DNA of 64,000 nt. Source: Schmidtea nova (taxonomy: Eukaryota). The notes under the pieces were generated by a model. It saw only the letters and a list, made by a program, of their open reading frames with translations. It ran no database searches and had not been told where the DNA came from. This document shows, in pieces, positions 4,162 through 61,405 of this stretch. Each line of letters begins with the position of its first letter. Positions within the stretch are counted from its first letter, which is position 1. The DNA lies in NCBI GenBank assembly GCA_044892505.1, contig CM097882.1:578150001-578214000 (forward strand). Reading direction: 5' to 3'. Position numbers and translations under genes: made by a program.

Positions 4162-4791
4162 TAGCGCCGTGCTGTAACCTTTGGGGGCCCTGTGCAGAAA
4201 CTAAAAAGATTTTTTTTTAATTTTAATTAATTTTTTATTGATTTTATTTAAAAAATAATACAAAGCAATTATAAAGTAATTTTTCTAGCTCTTTTGCTGG
4301 CAAATTCATCAATTATGTCATTGTATTCAACTTTTCTGGCTGTTGCATTTTCAATTGACAGTATTGCTAATCCAGAAAGTCTTTCCTGCAACATTGTAGA
4401 CCGTAGATAATTTTCAATTAATTTTAGTTTTGAAAACGATCGTTCACAATGAGCAACGGTAATGGGTATTGTTAAAATTATTCGATATACGATACATACA
4501 ATTGAATATAATTCTTCCAAATTCCTTTCTAAAATGAATTGAAAATTCTGCATAATAGTATAATTATCTTCTAAAATATATTTTAAAATAGAAAGTTCAT
4601 TTTTAAATTCCACTTCTTCAATATCGCCTTCTAAGTGAATTTTGAATTTTCAAATTTGTTTTTTTTCCTTTCAATTCGTAGTAATTTATGGTATTGGAGA
4701 AGTTTTTCTAATGTATTTAATATTTGGTGGCCCTCAAAAATTGAGGGCCCAGTGCGATTGCACTTGTTGCACTTGCGATAGTACGGCGCTG
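4162..4791 (-). mobile_element. Internally deleted hAT transposon retaining the C-terminal dimerization-domain ORF (4269-4613)
   Basis: TIR (T/C)AGCGCCGT, 8-bp TSD CATGGCAT/CATGGCAC; ORF contains TIPITVAHCERSFSKLKLIENYLRSTMLQERLSGLAILSIE, typical of the hAT/ZMYM1-like dimerization domain. Confidence 0.85.
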
Positions 4792-13878: not shown

Positions 13879-14139
13879 CGTATTAATTAACTAATTGATT
13901 TACATTTAACATCATATTTGATTAACAAATTTTATCTACATTTTTAGAAAATCAAAAAGACATTTTTTCAATATTTTTAATTTTAATTATATGATAAAAG
14001 AATGAAAAAAATTGAAAAAGGGATAAAAACTATGCAGTTGAAGATACGCCATATAACGTTCATGAAAATCCCTATATTATAATATAAAAATATAATATAC
14101 CCAACATTATCTGTTTATTTATTTATTTATTTGTGATTC

Positions 14140-22145: not shown

Positions 22146-23011
22146 ACGGAGTTAATCGGTATACGAAAATATGAATTCCAGCTTATAACATAAAACTAAA
22201 TACTAAATATATATATAAGAATTTTTGGCTTGTGCTTTTCATTTATTTCAAAGAAAAATACCGAATTAATGTAAAACATTCATTAATAAATTTTATTTAT
22301 TTATTAAACAACCAATTTATAGAAATATTAATGGAAAATACAAAAAATGTCAAAATTAAAATGTAAGCATACAAAGATTAATAGAGATATAATAAACATT
22401 TTTTATAAAGTATATTGGTAAAAAGATTAATTTTGTCACCTAATTTTGCCACCCTCATTAGTCAGATGGTCATCAAGCGATCAAAAACTAATTGAATGTT
22501 CGTCACCCTTATATTCTCTTGTCTTAAATAATTCAACTCTTGTTTATTATCAATTTCAGCTCCTTGATTTTTTTTCTTTTATAATTGCTTTTCCTGAGAT
22601 ACCTCCACTTTCTGTATTATTACCATAATTACCTTTACCTTCATAGATAACTCATAATTTGACGTTGAATCATTTAAGTCAGAATTCTTTCCAGAATTGT
22701 TTTTATTTTTAAAATATTTTTTATGCTTTCTTTGATATCAGTAATCACTTTTATCATTGGAACTTTACTGCTTAGATTAAAATCTCAGTATTTTTCCTCT
22801 TCTAAAATAATCAAATCAAAGTCTCTTAAGTAATGTCTGAATTGGAAGTTCTCTTCTCATTTATGCTATTTGTTGAAACCTTTTTAGTTTGACTCTTAAC
22901 GAGTTTTGTCTACTTATTTCATCTAGCATAAATGTTATCGTGACAACTGCCATGTATAAAGGGACTTTTTCACCGCCTAGAGTTCCAACGGTCAATTTTC
23001 TAGATTACATA

Positions 23012-24298
23012 CGTGGTGCGTTCAATAAGTACCCGACCAAAGGTAAAAAAATGTAATGACAAATTTTAGTTTTTTTGTGTAAATAAATAAATAAATATAG
23101 GTTTTGATTTCAGTTATTGTTTTATTTTATCAAACGCATTAAAATTTTTATTGTGACATTTTGAATTTTCGTCGGTGTAATGATTTCAGACGTTGAGTAT
23201 CGCAGCGTTATCAAGTTCTTTGTGTTGCAGAAGAAGACGTGCAGTGAAATCTACGATCTTTTGCAGTCAACTTACCTACATGACTCCCCATCTCTGACAA
23301 CTGTTAAATATTGGGTCAGAGAGTTTAAAGGTGGTCGCACCTCCGTTTTTGATCAAGAAAAATCAGGTCGGCCACAAGACATTTTTGACACAGTTGATGA
23401 AAAATTGGAGAAGATTGTCCAAGAAGAGCGTCGAATCACCATGAAAATGCTGTCAACGAAGCTCAACATCAGTGTTGGTACAGCCCACGCCAAATTGAAA
23501 TACATGGGTATCAGAAAACTGTGCTCCAGATTCGTACCCCGCTTCTTGACTGGTGAATTGATGCGAAACCGCTTGGAGTGCAGTCAGAACAACTTGAACC
23601 TGTGGGACCAGCATGGTGAGACTTTCCTGGCAAATTTAATAACGGAGGATGAAACCCCACTCAGTATGTATTTGCCGGAAACAAAGCGTGAGTCAGCAGA
23701 GTAGAAACTACCATCTTTGAAGATGCGAACGGGGACAAGTCATGGGCGAGCGATGATGTTTTCCATTTTCTGGGATCATAAAGGTGTTATTCTCATTGAT
23801 TTCGCGGATAAAGGCATCACCATCAACGCTGCCTATTACAGCCAACTCGTGGCAACCGCCAGAAAGAATAGACGGAAGCAGAAGAATACGCCACTATGGT
23901 TTCTCCACGACAATGCGCCAGCGCACACAGCGGGCATTTCTCGGGCCACAATTGAAGGTGCTAGACTAGTGCTTGTGGATCATCCGCCGTACAGCCCAGA
24001 TTTGGCACCAAGCGATTTTTACCTCTTTAGACACCTAAAGAAGCATTTGAGAGGCACCCAGTTTGGATCCAAAGACGATTTGAAGGTTGCCGTGGAGGAT
24101 TTCTTCAATGCATGTCCCCGAGATTTCTTCAAAAATGCGTTTTCTGAGTTTATTATTCGTTGGCGGAAGTGTGTGGAGCGAAATGGACATTATGTTGAAA
24201 AGTGATGCCTACATACGTTAAGCTTGTTGTGTCATAAAAATGGCCCATTTTGAAATTCGTTTTCTTCGTCAGGTTGGGTACTTATTGAACGCACCACG
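23012..24298 (+). mobile_element. Full-length mariner (DD34D) transposon with inactivated transposase
   Basis: 27-bp TIRs CGTGGTGCGTTCAATAAGTACCC(G/A)ACC, TA on both flanks; ORF 23180-24205 broken by TGG>TAG at 23702 plus a 12-nt deletion relative to the second copy; YSPDLAPSD motif. Confidence 0.97.
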
Positions 24299-35707: not shown

Positions 35708-36511
35708 TTATTGAAACCAAATGTCATTGAGAATCTCGTTTAATTCAATTCTTTGATCCGGATCAACAACAATACATTTCTTGATAAATTCTTTTACGTG
35801 TTTTGAACATTTTGTAAATGATATTTTTCGAATGTAATCATCATTTTCTTTAAGGAAAGCCTTTTTCTGTTCGAGACAACTGTAAGTAAGGGCACCCAAC
35901 ATGAATACAATATTTTTCTGTATATCGTAATCTTCTTCATAATTGAATACTTCTGGACTGTAATACCCAGCAGTTCCAACGTGCCAATCACTTGTAGGAT
36001 TTTTTGTCTCAGCATCATAAAGTGCGTCTTCATAATCAAGAATCTTTACTTTAAATGTTGATTTATTCACCATGATATTTCTAGGTTTGATATCCGTGTG
36101 ATAAATGCCTTTTTCTGTTAACTTTTTAATGGCTATTATTATATTTTGAACGATTTTCTTAATAGTTTTTTCAGGTCGTTTTTTCCTCATTATGTATTTA
36201 TGTAATTCAATCCATTTACCTGTCAAATGTTCCATAACAATTGCAAATTCTTCTTCATCTTGAAAAAAAGTAAGAATTTCAGGACAAATTTCATTATCAT
36301 TAATTAATTGATTAAAATGCATTTCAAGTGGAATAGGAAATGGATAATCTGGATTTGTAATGAATAAGTCATCCTTAGATTTGTAATAGCTTTTTATAAC
36401 TACAGTTTTTTTTCTAGTGTTGTCGTGCGAATAGTTTTCTGCGACATATATTGTACTTTTCTTTGATGAAAGGAGAGTTTCGATGTATTTGTAATAATCA
36501 TTTATAATCAT
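35708..36511 (-). CDS. Intronless atypical PIM/PASK-like Ser/Thr kinase, paralog 1 (267 aa; HTD, DYE)
   Basis: VVIK, IPLE, FAIVME, HTDIKPRN, ILDYED, GTAGYYSPE, DPDQR subdomains; no GxGxxG. Confidence 0.92.
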   Translation of the reverse strand: MIINDYYKYIETLLSSKKSTIYVAENYSHDNTRKKTVVIKSYYKSKDDLFITNPDYPFPIPLEMHFNQLINDNEICPEILTFFQDEEEFAIVMEHLTGKWIELHKYIMRKKRPEKTIKKIVQNIIIAIKKLTEKGIYHTDIKPRNIMVNKSTFKVKILDYEDALYDAETKNPTSDWHVGTAGYYSPEVFNYEEDYDIQKNIVFMLGALTYSCLEQKKAFLKENDDYIRKISFTKCSKHVKEFIKKCIVVDPDQRIELNEILNDIWFQ

Positions 36512-37784
36512 CTTTAATATTTGCTTTAAAAGTTTCTTTATTTAATATAGAAGTACATTTTATCTATTTTTTATTTTAATTGCATACTATTGGTTAATAT
36601 AATTAATAAATAAATTATAATTAATAAATTACAAAAATAAATAAATTATTATTATTAAAATAAAAAAAAATATTTTTCATTAACTAATGAATTCATTTTT
36701 CATTGTAATTTACTTTGGGAAAATATTTTTGTTATATAACAATTTTTATGACAAAATAAAATTTTTAAAAATATTAAAAATTATTATTGTAATATACTCA
36801 CTTTAGATATCGTCAAGACTCCATTATTATCCGCGTAGAGTCTAAATCCCCAAGGAGGTCCTTTGGTCAATAAGAATCGTTTTTCGACACTGGGCATTTT
36901 TCGCTTATTCGGATGTTGAGGTGAGAAAAAAATTTACAGAAATTTCCGTAAATAAAAATCACAAATCAATTTTTTGAAAATTTTAACGTAAACTGAATAT
37001 ATATAATTGTCAGATTTTCGAAATTCGAAATGAACCAAAATTGACGTGATTTTCTTTTTTTATTTGTTTATATTGTTGATTCTGTATATTATATCGGAAG
37101 GACATAAATTCAGCATGTCGTTTGCACTGTTCTGTGTTTCCAATTAAAAAAATTTATAGAATCGATAATTCAGCACATCGCCATTGGATCTGATAGTGTG
37201 TTTCTGTGTGTATTTCCCAGAGAAGCGGAACTGATCCGTAGACGAAATACGGTCCATATGATCGACTGATGCCGAATATATAAAGTGCAACATATGCAAA
37301 CACACATTCACGCATACAGACACAAAGAGAGTTAGCAGCAGAATCTCAGAAAAACTAACATGGCAATTCTAATTCTATTTTTGATCCACAGATATAACGA
37401 ATTCAGATAATTTCTGCTTTTTCTTTGAGATGCAATTTTACTGATGGAAAATATTTCAAGGGAAAATTGTCGTTTAGTGACATAATGGAATTTGTTTTAG
37501 TTTTTTTGCGAAAATTACTGTTAAAATTCTTTTTTTTAATTTTTTAAAATTTTTTAATTAAATTTATTTAAATTTTTTGATTCTTTTCTTAAAATTATTT
37601 ATTGAATTTATTCTATTAATTTATTATCAAATTTTTTATCGGTAAAATTAAGTATTACTATGTTGATATTTTATTTTTAATTGTATAGAAACTAATTAAA
37701 ATTAATTTACTATTAAAATAATCAAAATTCGATTTAAATTGATGCCGACTTAGAATGGAATTCAGGAAAATATTTTAATTATTT

Positions 37785-40500: not shown

Positions 40501-40972
40501 CTATATATAAATCCAATACGGCTTTTCTTAAGAGACTACTCGAAATTTGGTGGAATATTGAGCACATATATACTTCGATAATTTAAATTAATTTATTATA
40601 TTTAAATTTTTTTAATATAAACATCACCTATTTTATGCATCATTTATAATTGGAATCTAGTTGACCATGATAGCGTTTATGAGTTAAACAGAGATTTCGA
40701 AAAAAAACTAAAATATTCGAGTAATTGGACTTGTTAACTTAATTTTCAACTTAATTTCAAATATTTTGTTTATTTTATTTCAAATTTTATTATTTAAAAT
40801 TTACATATATATATTTAGTTATATCTTGTTTATTTAATTAAAAACCTATTTAAAATAAAATTTTATTTAAATTTTCTCATTTTAAATTTATTTATATTTT
40901 TTATTTTTATTTAAAATTTATTTAAAATAAAATTAGAATGAATGATTGAGAGACGCCGACTGATAATTAAAT

Positions 40973-43900
40973 TGTTGGATGTTGGTAAAATTTAGAATTT
41001 ACCATTAATTTTCTTATAACAAACGTGTTTATTTGATCATCACAGCTGGTTTCAAGAATGACAATGGTACGACAAATTCAACAATATGACAGATAATTAT
41101 ATAGTTCTTATTACGACACTTGGTGAGGAATAGCAGTCGTGTACAATATCTCTGTCTAATGATCAATGGCTACTGGTATAGATTCGACAATGGATTAATG
41201 ACTAATTGCTTTCTTGCTTTGACTTGGAAGTTTGCTTAATAAACTTTAATTTTTTACAATCTTCTCAATATTACACTTTGATTCTTCTCAATTTCAATTT
41301 ATTTGCCAATTTTCTATTCGATTCTCTCTTTTTCTTTTCTCTCGTCCAATATTGTTTAATCCTTTTATTGTTGGTCAAATTTATGGTACTTGAGATAAAT
41401 GTTTTTTCTCCATTTTTGCCTCTCGCATACTCTCATGCAATATTTCTGACATCCGGCGAGATTTACCATGCCTCTTTTTTTATTCCGACTTTTTCTCTTG
41501 CAATCCTGATAGTAGGTAGTTAGTGGCTCCCCAACCCAACCCCCCCGCCCCCCCTAGAAAAAAAGTGGGTTGGGGAGCCACTATGTTTTTTCGTCGATCT
41601 TTTGTATAGGAAAATTTTTGTCGGTCTTTTGTACAGGTGGCTTAGAAAGCCACTATGTTTTTTCGTCGGTCTTTTGTATAGGATTTTCTATTCCGAGATT
41701 TTTCTCGGGCAAAAAGGGACTCTGAAATTTTGTACAGGGATTTTGAACAGGGATTTTTGGTCTGGTATTTTTGTACAGGGATTTTTGGTCTGGTTATTTT
41801 GAATAAAGAATTTTGGGTCAATCTTTTGTATAGAAAATTTTTGTCGATCTTTTGAATAGGATTTTCTACTCCGAGATTTTTCTCGGGCAAAAAGGGACGC
41901 TGGTATTTTTGTACATGGAATTTTGGTCTGGTATTTTTGTATAGGATTTTGGTCTGGTTATTTTGAACAGGGATTTTTGGTCAATCTTTTGTATAGAAAA
42001 TTTTGTCGGTCTTTTGTATAGGATTTTCTATTCCGAGATTTTTCTCGGCCAAAAAGGGACGCTGGTATTTTTGTACATGGAATTTTGGTCTGGTATTTTT
42101 GTATAGGATTTTGGTCTGGTTATTTTGAACAGGGATTTTTGGTCTGGTATTTTTGAATAGGATTTTGGTCTGGTTATTTGGAATAGGATTTTCTACTCCC
42201 AGATTTTTTCTAGGGCAAAAAGGGACTCTGGATATTTGTATAGGGACTTTTATACAGGGATTTTTGGTCTGGTATTTTTGTATAGGATTTTTAGTCAGGT
42301 ATTTTGTATAGGATTTTGGTCTGGATATTTTGAATAGAATTTTCTACTCCCAGATTTTTTTAGGGTAAAAAAGGGAATCTGGTAATTTTGAACTAAAAAT
42401 TAAATGGTAAATAAAAAACACGTGTAAATTTTTTAAAATAGTAAAATACATTGAAATTATTTTGAATAGGATTTTCAATTCCCAGATTTTTCTTCAGGCA
42501 AAAATAGACTCTGGTAATTTTGAACTAAATTTTTTATGGTAAATAAAAACACGTGTAAAATTTTTAAACTAGTAAAATAGATTGAAATTATTTTGAATTG
42601 TATTTTCAATTCCCACAATTTCTAGGGCAAAAAGGGACTCTGGTAATTTTGAATAGAAATTTTAAATAAAGATTTAAGAAAAGGCTATTAAACACGTGAT
42701 TAAATTTAATATGCAATAAAACATGGAGAATTTTACAAAAACAAAAGAATGACATAATTTTTAAAACTTAATGAAAAAGGGTAAAATTAAGGCAAAGTCA
42801 GAGTTGAAATGACATAATATTTAAAATTAAATAAAAAGGGTTAAATTAAGGCAAAGTCAGAGTTGAATGATGCAATATTTAAAATTTAATGAAAAAAAGG
42901 GTAAAATTTTTTGAGCAATCTCGGAGTTGGTAAATTAAAAGTAAAATTTTTTAAAGTAAATTTTTTCAAAGTAAAATTTTTTTACAATAAAATTTTTTAT
43001 ACAATTTTTATAAAATCTTAAACTAAATTCAATAAACTTTTTTATACTGAAATTTTTAAGAGATTTTATGATAAATAAAAACACATCTAAATTTAGAAAA
43101 ATGATAAATAGATTTAAATGGTTAAATTAAATAGGCAATAAAACATGGAGAATTTTTACAAAGACAAAAGAATGACAAAATATTTAAAATTTTATAAAAA
43201 AGGGTAAAATTAAGGCAAAGTCAGAATTGAAATGACATAATATTTAAAATTTAATAAAAAAGTGTAAAATTAAGGCAAACTGAGAGTTGAAATGATATAA
43301 TATGAAAAATTTTATAAAATAAGTACGAAATGTTTTGGCAAACTCAGAGTTGGTAAATTTTTAAATATAAAATTAAAATTCTTTCACAAAATGAAATTTT
43401 CAAACTAATAAAAGTCTTAACAAATAAAAATTTTTACCAAATAAAAATTAATCAACAAATAAAGTTTTTTACCAAATAAAAATTAAACAATACAAATCAA
43501 ATTTCAAATACTAATTTTTTTTCAAGAAAGGTTTTGTTGTAATATATTCTTCTTAATTCAGTCAAAAGAAAAGTGTTTGGTCTGGGAATTTCCAAAAATT
43601 AAAAAGTTGTCAGAATTCAATAATTTTTATACCAATCTACTGAGAATTGAAAGGCGAACAATAAAGGTCAAAAAATTAAAATTATGAAAAAATCAAAATT
43701 TTATTCAGGAAATGTCAGTCTCAGTAAAAAAGGGTAAAGTACATAAAAAACGTGGAAATATTTAAAAAATTTTTAAACTAAATAATTAATTCTAAAAAAA
43801 TTTATGATAATTAAATAAAAAAAGTAAATAATTTCTATATGAATTTCCAAACTCAGTAAATAATTCACTCAATATTTTTGTAATGAATTTATTAAATAAA

Positions 43901-46900
43901 ATGGTACAATAAATAAAAAGCATGGAAATAATAAGTAAATTAAAGTTTGAATTTTAAAATAATTTGTTCTGGATTTATGAAAAATGGTAAAGTAAATAAA
44001 TTAAAGATAGAATTTTTAAAATAAATTAAGAATTTAAAGATAAATAGAATTATAAGCAAATAGTATTTTTTTAAATAAGTAAATTAAGAAAGACGTGAGT
44101 TTTAATATCATAATTTTAAAATGAATCGGCTTTAAATGAACTTTTTAATCTAATATTTGAAAAATGTGAGAATAATTAAATATTTTTGAAATTCTTTAAA
44201 GTAAATTTTTTAACAATAAAGTCAATGTAGAAAATTTTAACTATAAAATCAATGTATATTTTTAAAATCATCAACCAACAAGTAAAATTTTTTTTAATTA
44301 ATAAATACAAAGTAAATATTTTATACAAGTAAAATTTTTAACTAATAAATACAAATCTAAATGTTTTTCAATATGATCTTTTATAAGGAAATAATCAAAT
44401 AACAAAAAATAAATGTAGTAAATAAAACACATGTAAATATTAAATTTATTTAGAATAAAAGTAGTTATTAAACAAGAGTTGTTACAATTTTGTATACTAA
44501 GTTAAAAAATATTGATTAATGACATAAATATTTAAAAATAAACGTAATAATTGAAAATATGGGAACAAGTAAAATAATAATATTAATAATAATAATAATA
44601 ACAATAATAAGTAACACTTATCAATCAATCTAAGTACCAACAATAAACCGATCAACTAACTAATAATCTCATTACACACACACACACAAATCAATAACCG
44701 AATAGTTATAGATCAGATACCAACTGACTCTATCCACAAATTAAAAACCAACTAGTTATTTACCAGTTACCAACTGACTCTATATTAACCAACTAGGAAA
44801 ATTGTTCCATATGTCAATCAATTATCTCTTCTTATTAACTAGATATCAATTAATCCAATCCCCTTAGTTAACAAACAGACCAATTCCTTACTTACTTACT
44901 ACTTCTACACGTTAACCAACTAGTTCTATACACCAACCAATTGGTTCTATTCATTAATCATATACCAACCAACCAACTACCCACTCTATACATACTAACC
45001 AGCAACTAATCTCTTACTTACCAACTAGTTCTCTACATTAACCAACTAACTCTTCTCACCAACCAACTAACTCTTCTCATTAACCAACTACTTCTATTCA
45101 CAAATCCCCAACCAACTACACTAATCAACTAACTAACTATACATACTAACCAACAACTAATCTCTTACTTACCAACTAACTCTTCTCATTAACCAACTAC
45201 TTCTATTCACAAATATTATTATTTTACTTGTTCCCATATTTTCAATTATTACGTTTATTTTTAAAAATTTATGTCATTAATCAATATTTTTTAACTTAGT
45301 ATACAAAATTGTAACAACTCTTGTTTAATAACTACTTTTATTCTAAATAAATTTAATATTTACATGTGTTTTATTTACTACATTTATTTGTTGTTATTTG
45401 ATTATTTCCTTAAAAAAGATCATATTGAAAAACATTTAGATTTGTATTTATTAGTTAAAAATTTTACTTGTGAAAAATATTTACTTTGTATTTATTAATT
45501 AAAAAAAACTTTACTTGTTGGTTGATGATTTTAAAAAAATACATTGATTTTATAGTTAAAATTTTCTACATTGACTTTATTGTTAAAAGATTTACTTTAA
45601 AGAATTTCAAAAATATTTAATTATTCTCACATTTTTCAAATATTAGATTAAAAAGTTCATTTAAAGCCGATTCATTTTAAAATTATGATATTAAAATTCA
45701 CGTCTTTCTTAATTTACTTATTTAAAAAAAATACTATTTGCTTATAATTCTATTTATCTTTAAATTCTTAATTTATTTTAAAAATTCTATCTTTAATTTA
45801 TTTACTTTACCATTTTTCATAAATCCAGAACAAATTATTTTAAAATTCAAACTTTAATTTACTTATTATTTCCATGCTTTTTATTTAATGTACCATTTTA
45901 TTTAATAAATTCATTACAAAAATATTGAGTGAATTATTTACTGAGTTTGGAAATTCATATAGAAATTATTTACTTTTTTTATTTAATTATCATAAATTTT
46001 TTTAGAATTAATTATTTAGTTTAAAAATTTTTTAAATATTTCCACGTTTTTTATGTACTTTACCCTTTTTTACTGAGACTGGCATTTCCTGTATAAAATT
46101 TTGATTTTTTCATAATTTTAATTTTTTGACCTTTATTGTTCGCCTTTCAATTCTCAGTAGATTGGTATAAAAATTATTGAATTCTGACAACTTTTTAATT
46201 TTTGGAAATTCTCAGACCAAACACTTTTCTTTTGACTGAATTAAGAAGAATATATTACAACAAAACCTTTCTTGAAAAAAAATTAGTATTCTAAATTTGA
46301 TTTGTATTGTTTAATTTTTATTTGGTAAAAAACTTTATTTGTTGATTAATTTTTATTTGGTAAAAATTTTTATTTGTTAAGACTTTTATTAGTTTGAAAA
46401 TTTCATTTTGTGAAAGAATTTTAATTTTATATTTAAAAATTTACCAACTCTGAGTTTGCCATAAAATTTCGTACTTATTTTATAAAATTTTTCATATTAT
46501 GTCATTTCAACTCTCAGTTTGCCTTAATTTTACACTTTTTTATTAAATTTTAAATATTATGTCATTCTTTTGTCTTTGTAAAATTCTCCATGTTTTATTT
46601 CATATTTAATTTAACCATTTAAATCTATTTATCATTTTTCTAAATTTATACGTGTTTTTTATTTATCATAAAAATTTAAGTATAAAAAAGTTTATTGAAT
46701 TTAGTTTAAGATTTTATAAAAATTGTATAAAAAATTTTATTCTCAAACATTTTACTTTGAAAAATTTACTTTAAAAATTTTACTTTTAAAATTTTACTTT
46801 TAAATTACCAACTCCGAGATTTCCCAAAAAATTTCGTACTTATTTTTAAATTTTTCATATTATGTCATTTCAATTCTGACTTTGCCTTAATTTTACCCTT

Positions 46901-48493
46901 TTTATTAAATTTTAAATATTGCATCATTCAACTCTGACTTTGCTTTAATTTTACCCTTTTTTATAAAATTTTAAATATTATGTCATTTTTTTGTTTTTGT
47001 AAAAATTCTCCATGTTTTATTGCCTATTTAATTTAACCATTTAAATCTATTTATCATTTTTCTAAATTTAGATGTGTTTTTATTTATCATAAAATCTCTT
47101 AAAAATTTCAGTATAAAAAAGTTTATTGAATTTAGTTTAAGATTTTATAAAAATTGTATAAAAAATTTTATTGTAAAAAAATTTTACTTTGAAAAAATTT
47201 TACTTTTAATTTACCAACTCCGAGATTGCCCAAATAATTTTACCCTTTTTTCATTAAATTTTAAATATTGCATCATTCAACTCTGACTTTGCCTTAATTT
47301 AACCCTTTTTATTTAATTTTAAATATTATGTCATTTCAACTCTGACTTTGCCTTAATTTTACCCTTTTTCATTAAGTTTTAAAAATTATGTCATTCTTTT
47401 GTTTTTGTAAAATTCTCCATGTTTTATTGCATATTTAATTTAATCACGTGTTTAATAGCCTTTTCTTAAATCTTTATTTAAAATTTCTATTCAAAATTAC
47501 CAGAGTCCCTTTTTGCCCTAGAAATTGTGGGAATTGAAAATACAATTCAAAATAATTTCAATCTATTTTACTAGTTTAAAAATTTTACACGTGTTTTTAT
47601 TTACCATAAAAAATTTAGTTCAAAATTACCAGAGTCTATTTTTGCCTGAAGAAAAATCTGGGAATTGAAAATCCTATTCAAAATAATTTCAATGTATTTT
47701 ACTATTTTAAAAAATTTACACGTGTTTTTTATTTACCATTTAATTTTTAGTTCAAAATTACCAGATTCCCTTTTTTACCCTAAAAAAATCTGGGAGTAGA
47801 AAATTCTATTCAAAAAATCCAGACCAAAATCCTATACAAAATACCTGACTAAAAATCCTATACAAAAATACTAGACCAAAAATCCCTATATAAAAGTCCC
47901 TATACAAATATCCAGAGTCCCTTTTTGCCCTAGAAAAAATCTGGGAGTAGAAAATCCTATTCAAAATAACCAGACCAAAATCCTATTCAAAAATACCAGA
48001 CCAAAAATCCCTGTTCAAAATAACCAGACCAAAATCCTATACAAAAATACCAGACCAAAATTCCATGTACAAAAATACCAGCGTCCCTTTTTGGCCGAGA
48101 AAAATCTCGGAATAGAAAATCCTATACAAAAGACCGACAAAAATATTCCTATACAAAAGACCGACGAAAAAACATAGTGGCTCCACAACCCACTTTTTTC
48201 TAGGGGGGGAGGGGGGGTTGGGTTGGGGAGCCACTAACTACCTACTCCTGATATCTCTTATTTTTGTTAATCAATTTTGGAATTCTTTTACCCTTTTTTT
48301 ACTTCTTAATTAAGAATGACTTTTTCTGGCTAATTGTTCGATTTCTTTTGTTTTGCTACCATCTTCTCATTTATCAATTTTTGCTCTTCGTTTCTCTTTC
48401 TCCGAATTTTAAAACATCACATCATTTACCCTGTACATCTTCCCCAAATAATCTTTTTTGTGATAATATTTAATTTATTATTTATCCTCAACA
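40973..48493 (-). mobile_element. Solo LTR split into 40973-41510 and 48247-48493 by the palindromic element
   Basis: TGTTGG and CCTCAACA termini, TSD AAAT on both outer flanks, both halves similar to 29231-30301 (GCTATTC.TCACCA..GTGTCGTAATAAG block; TGTTGAGGATA start). Confidence 0.82.
41511..48246. mobile_element. 6.7-kb non-coding foldback/palindromic element with ~3-kb modular TIRs; candidate non-autonomous Maverick/Polinton derivative
   Basis: Arms ~41511-44584 and ~45213-48246 are reverse complements; termini AGTAGGTAGTTAGTGG...CCACTAACTACCTACT; TSD CCTGAT (6 bp) or TCCTGATA (8 bp); no credible ORF. Confidence 0.9.
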
Positions 48494-48529
48494 AAATCAA
48501 AATCTGGAAAAATAAAATTAGAAAAATTT

Positions 48530-49186: not shown

Positions 49187-50017
49187 TTAGCAACATGTAC
49201 GCATTTTCAACATTTTTTGAAACCAAATGTCATTGAGCATTTCATTCAATTCAATTCTTTGATCCGGATCAACAACAATACATTTCATGATAAATTCTTG
49301 TACGTTTTGTGAACAATTTGTAAATGAAATTTTTGGAATGTAATCATCATTTACATTTATAAAAGGCGTTTTCCGTTCGAGACAACTGTAAGTAAGGGCA
49401 CCTAACATGAATACAATACTTTTCCTTACATCATACACTTCTTTATGGTTGAATACCTCTGGGCTGAAATACCCGATTGTTCCAACATAATCTTTGCTTT
49501 TAGGATTTTTATTATTTGCATCATAAAGTGCGTCTTCGTAATCAAGAATCTTTACTTTAAATGTTGATTTATTCACCATGATATTTTTAGGTTTGATATC
49601 CCTGTGATAAATGCCTTTTTCTGTTAACTTTTTAATGGCTATTATTACATTTTTCATGATTTTCTTAATAGATTTTTCAGGTCGCTTTTTTTCCATAGTA
49701 TATTCATATAATTCAATCCATTTACCTGTCAAATGTTCCATAACAATTGCAAATTCTTCTTCATTTTGAAAATAAGTAAGAATTTCTGGACAAATTTCAC
49801 CATCATTTATTAATTGATTAAAATGCATTTCAAGTGGAATAGGAAATGGATAATCTGGATTTGTAATGAATAAGCCAATGTTATATTTGTAGTAGCTTTT
49901 AATGACTACAGTTTTGTTTTTCTTGTTACTATTCGAATAGTTTTTAGCCACATAAATTGTACTTTTCTTTGATAAAAAGAGAGTTCTGATAGATTTGTAA
50001 TTATCACTTATAATCAT
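49187..50017 (-). CDS. Intronless atypical PIM/PASK-like Ser/Thr kinase, paralog 2 (276 aa; HRD, DYE, C-terminal RTCC)
   Basis: Same subdomains as paralog 1, about 75-80% identical by eye; HRDIKPKN. Confidence 0.93.
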   Translation of the reverse strand: MIISDNYKSIRTLFLSKKSTIYVAKNYSNSNKKNKTVVIKSYYKYNIGLFITNPDYPFPIPLEMHFNQLINDGEICPEILTYFQNEEEFAIVMEHLTGKWIELYEYTMEKKRPEKSIKKIMKNVIIAIKKLTEKGIYHRDIKPKNIMVNKSTFKVKILDYEDALYDANNKNPKSKDYVGTIGYFSPEVFNHKEVYDVRKSIVFMLGALTYSCLERKTPFINVNDDYIPKISFTNCSQNVQEFIMKCIVVDPDQRIELNEMLNDIWFQKMLKMRTCC

Positions 50018-50602
50018 ATTAATATTTTGTTTTAATAATTTCTTTTATCTATTTAATATAGTAATATATTTTATTTTTTTAATATTTTTATTGTGTTTGA
50101 TTGGTTAAATTATTTTGATAATAAATTATAATTATGAAATTATGATTAAATTAGATAAATTTATAATACAATTATTACTGTACCAAAGCACAACTAATAA
50201 ATTTCTAAATAATACCTTTAATAATAAATCAAAAGGTTTTCTTATTATAAAAGTGGGAAAATTGGAAAAATTGGGAAAACTGGATATAAATAAGATTTAA
50301 TAATATAATGAAATACACACTTAATGAATGCTGTACCAAAATAGCTTCTTAAAATATTTGATCTATAGTCATACAATTATGAAAATTATTCGTATAAACT
50401 TAATATATAGGCTATAAATTCTCAATCTGTAGATAACCTGAAAAGTTTTAAAAAGTCACCTAAATATAAAAAAAATGTTTTTTGAAAATAAACAAATCCT
50501 TTTTACTAGTAAATTATTAACAATGTTTTGTGGTAGTTGTGCTGCTATCTTTTAAATATATCACAATTTTATTTTAGATAGTGAAAATATTATTTCAATA
50601 TT

Positions 50603-51530
50603 GGGGCAGTTGAAAAAATAGAAAATTTTTAAGCGTTTATTTAAAAAATAGAAAAGAAAATATTTTAATATAAAAAATAGAAAAGAAAATATTTTAATAT
50701 AAAAAATAGAAAAGAAATTATTTTAATATAAAAAATAGAAAATAAATTATTTTAATATAAAAAATAGAAAATAAATTATTTTAATATAAAAAATAGAAAA
50801 TTAAATATTTTAATATAAAAAATAGAAAATAAATTATTTTAATATAAAAAATAGAAAATAAAATATTTTAATATAAAAAATAGGAAATAAAATATCTGAA
50901 TATAAAAAATAGAAAAGAAATTTATTCAATTGAAAATATAGAAAATATATAAAATCATTTGAAATATACAAAAGAAAATATATTAATGCAATTATGGGAA
51001 ATATATTTTAGCGCTATAATATCATGTGTATTGCTGGTTGTTGTCATGGGGTGGAAGTTTAGTTTTTGTAAAAAATCAAGACAGTATAAATAAACAGTAT
51101 TGTGTTCTATAAAATATATATAATTATTGTCTTTTCAATAATTTCAATAAATTATATTGGTTTTTAATTGTTAAAATTCGTTGTATTATATTTTTAATAT
51201 ACCAAAAGATATAAGTGATGATCCATTGTTTCAATTGTTTAATTTTATTTTCTATTTTTTTATTTAAATATTTTATTTTCTATTTTTTTATTTAAATATT
51301 TTATTTTCTATTTTTTATATTAAAATAATTTATTTTCTATTTTTTATATTAAAATATTTAATTTTCTATTTTTTATATTAAAATAATTTATTTTCTATTT
51401 TTTATATTAAAATAATTTATTTTCTATTTTTTATATTAAAATAATTTCTTTTCTATTTTTTATATTAAAATAATTTCTTTTCTATTTTTTAATTAAACGC
51501 CTAAAAATTTTCTATTTTTTACATTTCCCC
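50603..51530. mobile_element. Mutator/foldback-type non-autonomous element, 928 bp, TIRs built from ~29-bp tandem units
   Basis: GGGG...CCCC termini, perfect 9-bp TSD TTCAATATT, arrays of ATTTTAATATAAAAAATAGAAAA(G/T)AAA inverted on the two sides. Confidence 0.88.
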
Positions 51531-52581
51531 TTCAATATTTACTAGCAATACTGTAATAAAATTATCATAAGATTGAGTTTATTTAGATTTTCAGCCTTAA
51601 ACAAAAAATAAACAATATGTTTAGTCAAATGGAACATAAAATAAAGTCACTCGTAAATTAACAATAAAATTGTGTATTTTCATAAATTTGCTTAGACATT
51701 AGAATTTTATTAATTATATATAATTAATATAAAACTTTATAGTAATTATCATGTATGCTGGGTTTATAGGTGGTTTTTAAATAATTAATAATAAATAAAT
51801 AAAAAAATAAATAAATAATTAAACAAACAATCATAAATAAGTATACTAGGGATGCCTCACCCATAACCATACAAAAAAACAAATCGTCTCACTCACACGC
51901 CCCTAACTATTCCCTATCTAGTTAGGTTGGAACTGCGCGCGGTGGTTGAAAAATGATGGGCAGGTGAGCTCCATCGCTGGAACTACTCCCCATTTATTTT
52001 CACGGGTTCCGCTGCCGCTAGAAGGTCTTACGCGTTATTCTCTCAATGTCTACGCTCAACTTCCAAAAAAAATAGCGAAATGCCTTTTCAATAGAGATTT
52101 GATTTAGCTACAAACTCCTTACGCTATATTAAAGCCAAAATAATGCGCTGCACCTTATAATTATATTTATTTATAAAAACTCTCGAAAATCTCCTTTATT
52201 AAGTATAACTGTTTAAAACTCAAAATCACCGCTATGTCGTTGCATCGCTATGTGAAAAAAATCTATTGATCAAGTTTTTCTTGCTAAGATTTCAATTCTG
52301 AAATTAAATCGCTACATAAGATGTAACATTCCTGTAAAACTCCAAATTTATCGCTGAAAAATGCGCAAACCTCAAAACCTATCGTTCAACACTCAAAAAT
52401 CCTATTACTATATGAAACCCTTAAAAACTATCGCAATTACCAAAACTATTCTCTATGTGTAACGATTCATTATGTGCAACCGAAAAAATATCCGAAAAAA
52501 TCCCAGATACATAAATTATAAAAAGGTACAACCGCCGTGTGAAGCTACGAGGCTCCAAGACGTCGACTATGGCTCCCTCGC

Positions 52582-55547: not shown

Positions 55548-56764
55548 GTATGTAGGCATCATTTTTCAACATAATGTCCATTTCGCTCCACACACTTCCG
55601 CCAACGAATAATAAATTCAGAAAACTCATTTTTGAAGAAATCTCGGGGACATGCATTGAAGAAATCCTCCACGGCAACCTTCAAATCGTCTTTGGATCCA
55701 AACTGGGTGCCTCTCAAATGCTTCTTTAGGTGTCTAAAGAGGTAAAAATCGCTTGGTGCCAAATCTGGGCTGTACGGCGGATGATCCACAAGCACTAGTC
55801 TAGCACCTTCAATTGTGGCCCGAGAAACGCCCGCTGTGTGCACTGGCGCATTGTCGTGGAGAAACCATAGTGACGTATTCTTCTGCTTCCGTCTATTCTT
55901 TCTGGCGGCTGCCACGAGTTGGCTGTAATAGGCAGCGTTGATGGTGATGCCTTTATCCGCGAAATCAATGAGAATAACACCTTTATGATCCCAGAAAATG
56001 GAAAGCATCATCGCTCGCCCATGACTTGTCCCCGTTCGCATCTTCAAAGATGGCTTTTCTCCAGACAGTTTCCACTCTGCTGACTCACGCTTTGTTTCCG
56101 GCAAATACATACTGAGTGGGGTTTCATCCTCCATTATTAAATTTGCCAGGAAAGTCTCACCATGCTGGTCCCACAGGTTCAAGTTGTTTTGACTGCACTC
56201 CAAGTGGTTTCGCATCATTTCACCAGTCAAGAAGCGGGGTACGAATCTGGAGCACAGTTTTCTGATACCCATGTATTTCAATTTGGCGTGGGCTGTACAA
56301 ACACTGATGTTGAGCTTCGTTGACAGCATTTTCATGATGATTCGACGCTCTTCTTGGACAATCTTCTCCAATTTTTCATCAACTGTGTCAAAAATGTCTT
56401 GTGGCCGACCTGACTTTTCTTGATCAAAAACGGAGGTGCGACCACCTTTAAACTCTTTGACCCAATATTTAACAGTTGTCAGAGATGGGTAGTCATGTAG
56501 GTAAGTTGACTGCAAAAGATCGTAGATTTCACTGCACATCTTCTTCTGCAACACAAAGAACTTGATAACGCTTCGATACTCAACGTCTGAAATCATTACA
56601 CCGACGAAAATTCAAAATGTCACAATAAAAATTTTAATGCGTTTGATAAAATAAAACAATAACTGAAATCAAAACCTATATTTATTTATTTATTTACACA
56701 AAAAAACTAAAATTTGTCATTACATTTTTTTACCTTTGGTCGGGTACTTATTGAACGCACCACG
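55548..56764 (-). mobile_element. mariner copy with intact 345-aa DD34D transposase ORF (55559-56596) but no 3' TIR
   Basis: 5' TIR plus TA at 56765; homology to copy 1 ends 11 nt after the stop; exactly 34 residues between LHD and APSD. Confidence 0.95.
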
Positions 56765-56769
56765 TATGA

Positions 56770-58250
56770 ATCAAACCATTTTATAGAAATTTAAAATTTA
56801 TGTATACTTTATTAAAATCAAAACTCGATAAAATTACTTCATTTATATGAAAAATACAAAAATTAATAACAAAACACATATGCTTTACAAAATTCGACAA
56901 ACCAATTTTTCAATCAAGTGTAATGAAAATTGAAATTAATTTTTCACGCAATCTTTTACAATAAAAACTCAATAAAATAATTTGAAATAGTTGAAACTTA
57001 AAACCTTATTCACAAAACACATGTGCAACACAAAACATGACAACTGTTAAATTTCTAATCAAGTCATTTTATAGAAATTTAAAATTTACACTTAAAATAT
57101 TACAATAAAAATTCAATAAAGTTACTGTATATTTGTGAAAAATACAAATTTTAATACAAAAAATTTTTAAGACAAATTTCTAATCAAATCATTTTATATT
57201 AATTTTTATTTTATGTATACTTTATCACATTGGAAACGCAAAAAATTATTTTAAAAAGGTGAAAAATAAAAGTTTTAATACAGACCAGTATGCAACACGA
57301 AGTACAACTTTAGAATTTCTAATCAAACCAATTTAATGAAAATTAAATTATACACTTACAATATTACAATAAAAATTCAATAAAGTTACTGTATATATGT
57401 GAAATATACATATTTTAATACAAAACACGCATGCATCACAATATTCGACCAATTTTTAATTTCTTATCAAATCATTTTATAATAATTAAAATTTTATATA
57501 TACATTGTAGTGCCTCCGTTATTTATATATTAGTACAATATTTTTATATGTAGAAATTTAATTAAATATTATATCATTATATTTATATATTAAAATCAAA
57601 TATTAATTTATACTTAAAATAAACTGAAATTGTTTAAATCACCAAAAAAACACTTTTCTCGTGAATTCAAAAAAATACAAGCAAGAAGAAATAATTAATC
57701 AACAATTTAAAAAGCGACATAATCAATCAACAATTTCAAAAGCTAAATAATCAATCAACAATTTCAAAAGCGAATTAATCAATCAACAATTTCAAAAGCG
57801 AAATAATCAATCAACAATTCCAAAAGCGAAATAATCAATCAACAATTTCAAAAGCGAAATAATCAATCAACAATTACATTGGAATTTAAATAAAATGTTT
57901 TACTATTTTATAGTCTTATCTTATTTTAGCTGCTAAATACATTATTACAATACAAACTCAACAAATTTTAAAATTAAACACGTGTGGAACACGATATACG
58001 GCAACTTTTAAATTTTATATCAAACCATTTTATTGGAATTTAAATTTGTCACACACTTTATTACAATAAAAAAACTCAATAAAATAATTTGAAATAGTTG
58101 AAATTTACAAATTTAATTACAAAACACGTGTGCAACACGAAAGACAACAACTTTCAAATTTCTAATCGAGTCATTTTGTCGGAAATTATTTTTTATCTCT
58201 ACAATATTAAAATGAAAACTCAATAAAGTTAATTTATATAGACGACATTT
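56770..58250. repeat. Degenerate AT-rich satellite-like array (~130-190 bp units)
   Basis: Recurrent AATTTCTAATCAA..CATTTTATAGAAATTTAAAATT..ACAATAAAA..CAATAAA..ACAAAACAC blocks. Confidence 0.7.
57693..57877. repeat. 28-bp minisatellite AATCAATCAACAATTTCAAAAGCGAAAT, ~6.5 copies
   Basis: Head-to-tail units with no spacers. Confidence 0.95.
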
Positions 58251-58272: not shown

Positions 58273-61200
58273 TGTTTATTAATAACACACCAACACACTT
58301 TATTTCCAATAAAGCAATTTTGTAATAAATTAAATTTTATCTTATACTTTATATTAGGATTTTCATCCTTTAAAACATTAGAATCAGTTTTACAACAATT
58401 TGAATCCATAACTTTTATTTCAGAAAAATATAGTTATCAAAATAATGTTTTCTTAATAATTTGTTATTTAAACAAATTTCCAAAAAAATATTTTTCTAAT
58501 TAAAAATATTTTTATATTTTAAAAATCAATCTTAAAATTAATTTTTAAAATTTTTCATTAAAAATTTCTTAAATCTTCCAACTTCCTCATATTCCCCTTC
58601 ATAAGAAATTTTTAAGTTTTTCCATATTTCTTTTGATCATTTTACCATTTTCATTTCTTAAGATGTATCGTCTGTCATGCACTTTCTCGATCACTTTGTA
58701 TGGACTTTCATATCTGTCCTGGCTTTTGTTGCGTGTTTCTAATTTTACTAACACTTCTTCTCATACATTGAATTTTCTCCTTTTTTGTTCTTCTAGTTCT
58801 TCCTTTACCGGTATTTCTTTGGACCTGTACCATTTTTCCCTGGCAATCCTTTTCCCAAAAACTATCTCTGCTGGGCTTTTCCCTGTCGTTTTTTGATTGG
58901 TTGCATTTAATGTGAATTCGACTTCTGGTAATATCTCTGCCCAATCCGTCTTCCTTCTATCCTGTAGAGTAGCATTTATCAGCTCCCGTATTGTCCTGAA
59001 TTGTCTTTCTATCTGACCGTTTGTTTGATGATGGTATGGACTCGAAAAACATAATTTAATATCTAGCATCTTTGTTAATTCTCTCATCATTCCTGATTCA
59101 AACGCCTTCCCAACTTTTATCTCCTTTGGGCATCCAAATCTTAAAATCCACTTTTCTAAAATCGTTATCTTTATTGTTTCTTCGTCTTGTTTTGTTATCG
59201 CTGTCAAGACTTGATACTTACTATACTAGTCTATTATACCCAATATATACTTCTTACGTCCCTTTGTTTCTTTCAATGGTCCACATATATCCACGAATAT
59301 AATTTCGAACATTTCATTTGATTCTTGTTTCTTTACTGGTTCTTTCGTTGTTATTGTTTTAGCCTTGGTTTATTGACAAATCTCATAACTTCGAACAATT
59401 TCCTGAATCTGACTCCACAGGTGTTTTCCAACATATCTATCTTTCATATAATCGGCTATCTTCTCGACTCCCACATGACAAAATAGTCTATGTATTTCCT
59501 TTATTGTTTCTTGTAACTCATTTTCAGGTATCATCGTTTTCTTTCGTACTTCTTCTTCTACAATTCCATGTTGGTTGTTGCTTCTCCCTTCTTCTCTGAT
59601 CGAATCTAGTAATCTGGTTTTTATCTTTTCTTTTTCAGCTTCTTCGTGGACCATTTGACACTGAACACACGTGTCACATTTAGTTCTCGACACCATGTCT
59701 GCATTTTGGTGTTTAATACACTTTCTGTATTCTACACTTATATCTAAACTGCTCAAATAATTGATCCATGTTTGGAATTGTGAAGTAATCGACTTCTTGG
59801 TTGTCATATAAACTTGATTGCCTTGTGGTCTATCCTGAGCGTGAATCTTCTTCCGTAGAGATAGTGCTTAAAATGAATGCAAAAATAATATACCGCCAAT
59901 AGTTCCTTTCTTGTAATACAATATCCTTTCTCATGGCTTTTCATCGAGTGTGATCTATAAGCAATTACTCTTTCCTTTCCATCTTTATCTCTTTGTGAAA
60001 GTACTGCTCCGATGGTATCAAAACTAGCGTCAGTATCTAAAATGAGATCCTTTTTCAGATCCGGAAAACATAAGATTGGCGCCATCGTGAGTGCTAATTT
60101 CAATCCCTCAAATACGTTATTCGTTCCTTCAGTCCAATCTAATTCTTTGTTACTCGGTCCGCTACATAATTGTTCTAACATCCTTGCCTTCTTTGCATAC
60201 TCACTGATGAATCTTCTATAATAATTGCAAATACCTAAAAAGCTTCGGAGTTTCTTCACGCAATTTGGTTTCCTAAAGTTTTGTATGGCCTGAATCTTAG
60301 ATGGATCTGTCTATACTCCTTCCTTGCTGATTATGTGTCCTAAGAATCTGATTTCTTTCTTTATTATTTGAAACTTTTCTGGATTAATCCTTAGTCCTGC
60401 TTCCTCAATCGCCTTTAATACTTCTCCGAGAATTGTATAGTGTTTCTCTTTACTGCTTGAATAAATCAAGATGTCGAACAAATACATCATTGCTCCCTTT
60501 ATTTTGCCTAATACTTTTGTCATCATTTCTTGGAACGTACCTGGTGCTGCTGCAATTCCAAACGGCATTCTGTTAAAACAGTATTGTCCGTTCTTTGTTG
60601 AGAAGGCTGTTTTCTCTTGTGATTTTGTTTCTAATTCCATTTGGTAATATGCATTACCTAGATCGATTGAGCTGAAAAAGACGGATCTTCCTAACAAATC
60701 GAACATCTCGTCTATGTTTGGCATTGGAAATGCCTGCCTCTCTGTTACCGCGTTCAGCTGTCTGAAATCCAAGCATAGTCTAATATCCTTTTTCTCTTTT
60801 TTCCATACACATATTAGCAGCATGTTCCATGAAGAGTTACAATTTCGTATAGTCACATTTTCGTACAAATTTTGTATTGCTTCTTCAATCTTTGATTCCA
60901 AATTTAATGGTTGCGATATGGTTTTATGTTTATCGGCTCACCTCTTGTAACTATCTTATGTTTTACCAAATATGTGCGACCCACATACCATTTATCTGCC
61001 ATAAACACGTTTCCACTGTTTGTTACAATTTCCTTTAATTTGCTATCTTCATTGATCTTTAACTGTTCCAACGCTCGTATCAATCGTTCTTCATCCTTTA
61101 TTTGTCTGCCAAATTTTGCTTCAATGTTACAAATATAGTTCTTGTCTTTTTCACTAGCCTCGATATCTTTAACTTTTAACAGTCTAAATCCAAATGTTTC

Positions 61201-61405
61201 TTGTAATTCGACTCCTCCAATCACATCTGGTGTCACTTTCTCCGCCACAATGAATATAACTTCCTTCGAAATATTTCCAATGGTTACTTACACCTTTGTT
61301 TTTCCTATTGTTTTTATCGAACTCTCGTTTGCGCATCGTAACGTATCGTCACTTCTCGTCAATTGTTGTCCTCGTAACTTGTTAAAACAGTTGATATTAC
61401 ATAAC
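58273..61405 (-). mobile_element. 5'-truncated, frameshifted Ty3/gypsy retrotransposon: partial protease, RT, RNase H, integrase, PPT and putative 3' LTR (58273-58589)
   Basis: RLCLDFRQLN, MPFGIAAAP, YLFD (mutated YLDD), TDASFDTIGAVL, IHRLFCHVG..C, NGQIER, ESPY; purine tract GAAGGGGAATA before TG; domain order PR-RT-RH-IN. Confidence 0.92.

Follow-up and report, generated by a model that had tools for sequence, protein, structure and literature searches.

Results

The element and its host repeat

The window, the whole 64,000-nucleotide stretch of the Schmidtea nova genome analyzed here (assembly GCA_044892505.1, contig CM097882.1, positions 578,150,001 to 578,214,000), contains at positions 41511–48246 a 6,736-bp element, with no strand assigned, that is very probably a non-autonomous Maverick palindrome from which the center has been deleted. 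Its fuller relatives elsewhere in the genome, which we call satellites, share their ends with autonomous Mavericks, which we call helpers. The element consists of a left arm (41511–44584, + strand; 3,074 bp), a right arm that is the reverse complement of the left (45212–48246, − strand; 3,035 bp), and an intervening loop of 627 bp; 77% of the copy is paired. It begins with AGTAGGTAGT at 41511, ends with ACTACCTACT at 48246, and is flanked on both sides by the 6-bp target-site duplication (TSD) CCTGAT (41505–41510 and 48247–48252, both +). Across two main blocks totaling 2,565 aligned columns, 30 substitutions separate the arms (1.2%); in addition, they differ by module-sized indels of one repeat module each, ~380 bp extra on the left and 361 bp extra on the right. 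The outer arm is itself modular, with repeats of 26, 59–60, 132, and 151–162 bp. The longest open reading frame (ORF) beginning with ATG encodes 49 amino acids, and tblastn comparison with the helper ORFs gave no match to core Maverick genes.

The insertion interrupts a 779-bp repeat that begins with TG and ends with CA, leaving its left part at 40973–41510 (+) and its right part at 48253–48493 (+), with AAAT preserved on either side (40969–40972 and 48494–48497). Its ends, its 4-bp TSD, and its repetition are the basis on which we call the repeat solo-LTR-like (LTR, long terminal repeat). The other copies that we examined are uninterrupted in 11 of 11 cases and carry a single CCTGAT at the corresponding site in 6 of the 11. 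An uninterrupted paralogue 37 kb away is 94–97% identical, shares the flanks, and has one CCTGAT. A sequence-only reading of the window had described a giant palindromic insertion, itself noncoding, within a solo LTR whose AAAT duplication is intact, and these points are borne out, with the host repeat placed as solo-LTR-like. The empty paralogous site is compatible with either a 6-bp or an 8-bp TSD at this locus. Of the words in the left flank, 46–70% are present in four public runs of one study, which give no evidence for the junctions.

Ends, target-site duplications, and autonomous relatives

The AT-rich genome searched comprises 1.25 Gb in 283 contigs. The terminal 27-mer of the element (41511–41537, +) occurs in it exactly 380 times forward and 374 times in reverse, making ~377 terminal pairs, compared with 0 for a control. 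From the first 100 matches listed, all on contig C1, 23 facing pairs were fetched as elements; four other facing pairs and one tandem cluster were left out of this sample. Among the 23 elements used for the TSD count, which include the window element and exclude a 68-bp pair, an exact 6-bp TSD is present in 20, and only 2 of 506 mismatched flank pairs agree by chance. All 23 of the distinct flanks have an unchanged terminal AGTAG, and position −1 is variable. An 8-bp TSD with GTAGG...CCTAC ends, the other parse originally offered, fits 3 of the 23 and was rejected on that count. Thus, the A-ended elements have the 5′-AG...CT-3′ termini with a short terminal repeat that are characteristic of Mavericks.

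The same 27-mer, followed by a homologous terminal inverted repeat (TIR) of ~2 kb, caps the autonomous elements E19.36, E42.2, E43.2, and E51.3. Four of the 23 fetched elements (17.5–18.1 kb) encode pPolB together with an ATPase of the Pox_A32 type, an integrase with an rve match, and a protease that weakly resembles adenain, and parts of this core set are present in two others; no long ORF of another transposase was seen in the 23 fetched pairs. The Pfam matches of the helpers are PF03175 (E 9e-32), PF00665 (E 6e-9), and PF04665 (E 9e-7), and the protease matches adenovirus proteinase weakly (E 0.012). ORFs of 408, 345, and 340 amino acids lie at the place expected for capsid genes and have no Pfam match and no informative PHROGs match; a single-sequence fold of the putative capsid protein reached a predicted local distance difference test (pLDDT) score of 29. 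The helper ATPase has at least 150 genome matches at 97–100% identity, 149 of the 150 listed being free of stops. Of 7,997 candidates compared with the helper pPolB, 1,526 are relatives, and the best of them reaches 65%. The assignment to a non-autonomous Maverick family, probably mobilized in trans, is therefore upheld by the 6-bp TSD, the AG...CT ends, and the 27-mer common to autonomous copies. Of the gene-bearing copies that this assignment predicts, pPolB, integrase, and ATPase are clear, the protease is weak, and the place expected for capsid genes is taken by ORFs that Pfam does not recognize.

On C1 at 56.76–56.92 Mb (G000:C1) and on contig C50, at least 10 terminal matches, several having one flank in common, alternate in orientation at distances of ~6 kb and 16–20 kb. 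Judged by this layout, the cluster is apparently a tandem amplification of the element together with its flank.

Derivation of the window copy by central deletion

The coverage of the window copy by its relatives indicates what it was derived from. Of the 23 fetched elements, 14 span 96% or more of its length, and the autonomous copies cover 56–59%, their match being confined to the outermost ~2 kb on either arm. The outer left arm (41511–43570, +; mirror copy at ~46227–48246) is homologous, at ~80–92% in pieces, to the TIR, 1.8 kb long, that autonomous elements of family A have. The inner arm (43571–44584, +) is satellite core, 91–99% identical to other satellite arms and unmatched in the family-A helpers. 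The 627-bp “spacer” (44585–45211, +) is 97–98% identical to both arms of the full-length parents E55.2, E107.0, and E79.3, which led us to reject it as unique DNA. It is instead the left arm carried on, its mirror copy having been lost, and by these alignments the inner arm and the spacer are parts of a longer arm of ~8.3 kb. The description of the element as almost all TIR is not sustained, since the helper TIR matches only the outer ~2 kb per arm and the rest belongs to the longer satellite arm; the ~630-bp spacer survives as a loop and falls as unrelated DNA.

The window copy follows the left arm as far as parent position 4415 and picks up again at 13062; the junction (45212–45214, +) has a 3-bp microhomology, AAT. 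The missing ~8.6 kb (~8,650 bp) of parent sequence contains a dead protease, both copies of a small gene, and the hairpin center. With up to two mismatches allowed, the junction is found once in the genome, and on that ground we rejected the possibility that it marks a short subfamily that is itself mobile. Because the arm stops and resumes at unequal positions and the junction is unique, the deletion is private to this copy and asymmetric. Several other derivatives break within ~10–30 bp of the central hairpin.

The parent palindromes

The parents E55.2, E63.6, and E99.5 (on C1 at 55.25, 63.62, and 99.51 Mb) are 16,416–16,821 bp long, each with its own TSD, and are 95–100% self-complementary around an 18–20-nt center; for the parents as a group the center measures 16–20 nt. 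This is the layout of a snap-back genome, a terminal segment followed by its reverse complement across a minimal loop. The center folds almost fully (z −19), and its 30-mer has 16 exact and 45 one-mismatch matches in the genome. The small gene near the center has at least 150 matches, and 78 of the 150 listed form 39 tail-to-tail (convergent) pairs. The offset within a pair is 810–825 bp in 31 of the 39, 717–721 bp three times, and 1,099 bp twice. Together, the 31 pairs with the same center offset and the many loci with TSDs of their own indicate that the parent is transposed whole, as a palindrome. E79.3 has a different, 5-nt center with 98% pairing; this center and the other recurring offsets imply that new centers arise and spread.

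An element's own two arms are as close to each other as, or closer than, either is to any foreign arm in 14 of 15 elements (3 ties), and in a second comparison they are closest or tied in 8 of 10 (1 tie). Divergence between lineages is 2.9% among A-capped satellites and 9% between A- and B-capped ones. The satellites also approach their helpers in size, 16.4–16.8 versus 17.5–18.1 kb for A-capped and 13.6–13.7 versus 14.4–15.0 kb for B-capped, a hint of a packaging limit that is weakened because the putative capsid proteins of families A and B are ~98% identical.

A small gene retained beside a dead protease

The parents hold half of a protease gene, whose stops are common to nearly all of the copies examined, and next to it a small gene in a different state. 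In satellite and helpers alike, the frame of the small gene is interrupted at one shared residue, and the gene therefore probably contains introns. Only 4 of the 150 listed matches to its larger exon contain a stop. Against six helper copies its ratio of nonsynonymous to synonymous substitution (dN/dS) is 0.08–0.24, the nearest being in family C at a dS of 0.96, and between E55.2 and four B-capped satellites it is 0.22–0.28. Protease remnant and small gene are both nearest family C. These values point to a small, probably spliced, helper-derived gene under purifying selection. The absence of coding capacity thus holds for the window copy alone and not for its family.

The encoded protein resembles little in the collections searched. 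The larger exon has no Pfam match, and the family-C homologue has no PHROGs match. Single exons found no homologue in the protein collection or the metagenome contigs, scored below 0.8 against the atlas, and matched Protein Data Bank sequences at E of 0.23 or higher. A single-exon model (pLDDT 63) has no Foldseek match at E ≤ 0.001; its best structural match is a ribosomal protein (Z 5.6, root mean square deviation 2.6, 72 aligned), which is within the common range. A role as an OB-fold protein binding single-stranded DNA was considered and is not supported by any sequence or structure match to these single-exon queries.

Exchange of ends and recurrence of the fold-back

The satellite core is not confined to family-A ends. 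Among 10 loci picked by a hairpin variant, five have the same satellite core bearing, at either side, ends that belong to autonomous family B (L142-L143, L152-L153, L144-L145, L148-L149, and L138-L139). These elements measure 9.6–13.7 kb, carry in the arm pieces of the C TIR and, as shown for one of them, a relic of the A TIR, and have a 6-bp TSD that is exact in four and has two mismatches in one. Their hairpin is short and off-center, but the A-TIR relic, which lies inside one B-capped satellite, makes it more likely that the B-capped form is derived than that it is ancestral.

A whole-element palindrome also exists in another Maverick family. At G000:C1:77,953,231-77,966,534 (L135-L137) lies a 13.3-kb palindrome with arms 99.7% identical, the TSD AACGTA, and an open 1,230-amino-acid pPolB frame in each arm. 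It is nested in a family-B element, and its center is formed by family-B ends.

Further observations on helpers and window

Several features of the helpers deserve record. The helpers encode an ORF resembling the TATA-binding protein (TBP; in E42.2, L038:2331-2813, −; Pfam TBP E 3e-15), head to head with the ATPase gene, and homologues occur in families B and C. In E43.2 this ORF is replaced by an inverted copy of the 3′ end of pPolB, and the TIR of the same element has grown to 2.8 kb and covers its pPolB 3′ end, a further instance of fold-back. All families examined have an integrase divided between two frames at one common position (L038:4120-5209, with equivalents in families B and C). Considered together, the split integrase and the split small gene, each at a fixed place, suggest that these Mavericks probably have introns; intact vertebrate Mavericks are described as intronless (PMC8097293).

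Four of the 23 fetched elements contain a reverse transcriptase ORF between their Maverick ends, open in two of them (1,008 amino acids at L043:3551-6577, with RVT_1 and C2H2, Myb-like, CCHC, and KPDL motifs; also in L051, L067, and L032). We take it to be R2-like, and it may be a retroelement that travels as DNA cargo. The four have a subterminal variant segment in common, which has 221 copies genome-wide and is also found on an autonomous copy.

Elsewhere in the window, two transposase copies that we presume from motifs to be mariner-like, 97% identical and opposite in orientation, lie at 23003–24216 (+) and 55548–56772 (−). Two intronless protein-kinase ORFs with 85% DNA identity lie at 35708–36647 (−) and 49187–50161 (−), the second matching Pkinase at E 6e-30. 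A foldback of ~950 bp with 29-bp tandem repeats in inverted arms occupies 50597–51544. Fragmented pol pieces of LTR retrotransposons lie at 58761–61287 (−), and an 805-amino-acid open frame that has no significant Pfam match lies at 11473–13890 (−).

Discussion

A proposed account based on replication

The ends shared with helpers, the recurrence of new centers, and the identity of the arms lead us to infer that the parents arise by snap-back replication and depend on helpers. We consider it probable that they are integrating snap-back defective genomes of Mavericks, and likely that the element has been copied and inserted by proteins of the autonomous Mavericks in the same genome. According to this account, replication would be protein-primed and strand-displacing, and a nascent strand would occasionally fold back and copy its own end, yielding either a hairpin or a duplex palindrome that has two origins. 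Each round would then rebuild one arm from the other, so that new insertions would have identical arms, and the helper integrase would insert the palindromic duplex. A short or absent spacer raises the instability of a palindrome (PMC7999016), and because a spacer-less palindrome is unstable in the chromosome, copies would lose their centers asymmetrically. The window copy would have lost its center by microhomology joining, after which its arms would have drifted apart independently. The family would also behave as a satellite, keeping one helper-derived gene under selection and changing helper by swapping ends.

Several points weigh against this account. It is drawn from genome sequence, and the extrachromosomal, hairpin, terminal-protein-linked, or packaged DNA that it calls for is a prediction. 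A search of 20 single-gene loci and five loci of other families found no autonomous element with the inner arm, and an origin of the fold-back at a preexisting helper hairpin was rejected, six helper copies having no comparable hairpin at the matching place. The window element is itself an exception in both arm comparisons, with arms 10/729 and 15/1,071 apart, where young foreign arms differ by 5 and 10–13. These distances are compatible with independent drift after loss of the center and lend no direct support to arm regeneration here. A single locus fits deletion before insertion as well as after it, and the identical arms of the perfect palindromes could stem from conversion after insertion or from averaging by the assembler. 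Finally, selection on the small gene within satellites is estimated from small counts by the Nei-Gojobori method, which ignores transition bias: the ratio of nonsynonymous to synonymous polymorphism (pN/pS) is 0.38 among ~40 satellite copies (binomial p = 0.012), and other satellite pairs give dN/dS of 0.22–0.54, with one of 1.6.

Other explanations

[quoted passage not shown] Its arms would have been homogenized by gene conversion after insertion, with no hairpin stage, and its small gene would be merely a young passenger. The shared ends and TSD fit this possibility equally well, many copies are very young (0–2 substitutions/kb between arms and between some copies), and spacer-less palindromes are recombinogenic (PMC7999016) and could homogenize their arms. 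Nevertheless, a single origin sits poorly with new symmetric centers recurring at several loci and with the same whole-element fold-back in a second family, and a passenger would not be expected to stay open, at a dN/dS of ~0.1 against the nearest helper family at a dS of ~1, beside a protease that is dead. We therefore regard this explanation as unlikely, though it deserves to be kept in mind.

The remaining two are considerably less probable. Long palindromes are known to trouble assemblers, and the window junction is unique in the genome, as one produced by fold-back reads, mis-joined arms, or a collapsed center could be. The unique non-palindromic flanks, the TSD on both sides, the empty paralogous site, the 1.2% divergence of the arms together with their module-sized indels, and the presence of the same center at 16 or more loci all make such an artifact improbable; it is conceivable for the exact center of the perfect 16-kb parents only. 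Foldback transposons (FB, Galileo, MULE) have very long modular inverted arms, a variable center, and a TSD of 7–11 bp. An element of that kind, or of hAT, with an 8-bp TSD and a chance likeness to Mavericks, would account for the modular tandem repeats in the arms and for the 8-bp parse that is possible at the window locus alone. Yet the TSD is 6 bp in most elements, the terminal AG is invariant, and the partners found with the same ends are elements encoding pPolB, ATPase, and integrase rather than a DDE transposase. Membership in another superfamily thus seems to us highly implausible, the least credible of the explanations considered.

Relation to known systems

The replicative account places the satellites among several known kinds of element without matching any of them fully. 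Non-autonomous or MITE-like Polintons have helper ends, lack replication and integration genes, and reach high copy numbers. The satellite differs in not being shorter than its helper and in owing its structure to fold-back and not solely to internal deletion, and it retains a selected gene and carries the ends of two helper families. Foldback transposons are unlike it in TSD length and in the source of their ends. Protein-primed linear plasmids such as yeast pGKL1 give rise to a hairpin monomer and a palindromic dimer and are cytoplasmic and non-integrating; their derivatives are like the satellite in that a protein-primed replicon yields a hairpin or palindrome and unlike it in that the satellite integrates.

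In viruses, snap-back genomes are defined as a class of defective viral genomes (PMC13506859). They and copy-back genomes share with the satellite the copying back of one end at full length to give a symmetric, helper-dependent palindrome, and differ in being products of virus replication, where the satellite is DNA, integrated with TSDs, and a family in the genome. Polintons are 15–25 kb long and carry pPolB, integrase, protease, and ATPase (PMC6431247), and intact vertebrate Mavericks measure 16.9 ± 1.7 kb, with TIRs of 46–1,447 bp (mean 402), a 6-bp TSD, and AGT/AG end motifs (PMC8097293). The satellites agree with them in the 6-bp TSD, in AG...CT ends with a short repeated motif, in long TIRs, and in the length of the parent, 16.4–16.8 kb. 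They differ in having none of the core genes, in forming one palindrome throughout, and in a terminal motif, AGTAGGTAGT, without an exact (AGT)2 or (AG)3 of the kind given there. Their arms run from 3 kb in the window copy to 8.3 kb in the parent, against that vertebrate TIR range. For Caenorhabditis elegans, the portion of PMC11414722 available gives a Polinton TIR of 744 bp and does not mention palindromic derivatives. More generally, we found no description of whole-element palindromic Maverick derivatives in a literature search whose coverage excluded most subscription journals, Repbase reports, and supplements. The satellites are a whole-element palindromic form of a known class, the non-autonomous Maverick derivative.

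Implications

Replication of Mavericks that is protein-primed, extrachromosomal, and strand-displacing has been proposed by analogy with adenoviruses and linear plasmids. Multi-copy palindromes that span whole elements, with tiny centers, identical arms, and helper ends, are a by-product that such a protein-primed model predicts. In this organism the chromosome repeatedly receives 16-kb palindromes that lack a spacer and are expected to be fragile sites, and the series of deletions shows their decay. The window copy is one decayed member; what deserves attention is the family as a whole, with the gene it has kept and the helper ends it has exchanged.

A stronger possibility, which we raise tentatively and think somewhat less probable than its negation, is that the parent is a true satellite, a virus-like parasite of an animal Maverick. 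Such a parasite would have a hairpin or palindromic genome of a size suited to the helper particle, would use the helper polymerase and integrase, would carry a spliced gene of its own, and would switch helpers by exchanging ends, its core being nearest family C and its ends first those of A and then those of B. Maverick virions have not been observed, according to PMC8097293. If this possibility holds, the genome would preserve the intermediates of Maverick replication, and the dynamics of defective interference, as fossils that can be dated.

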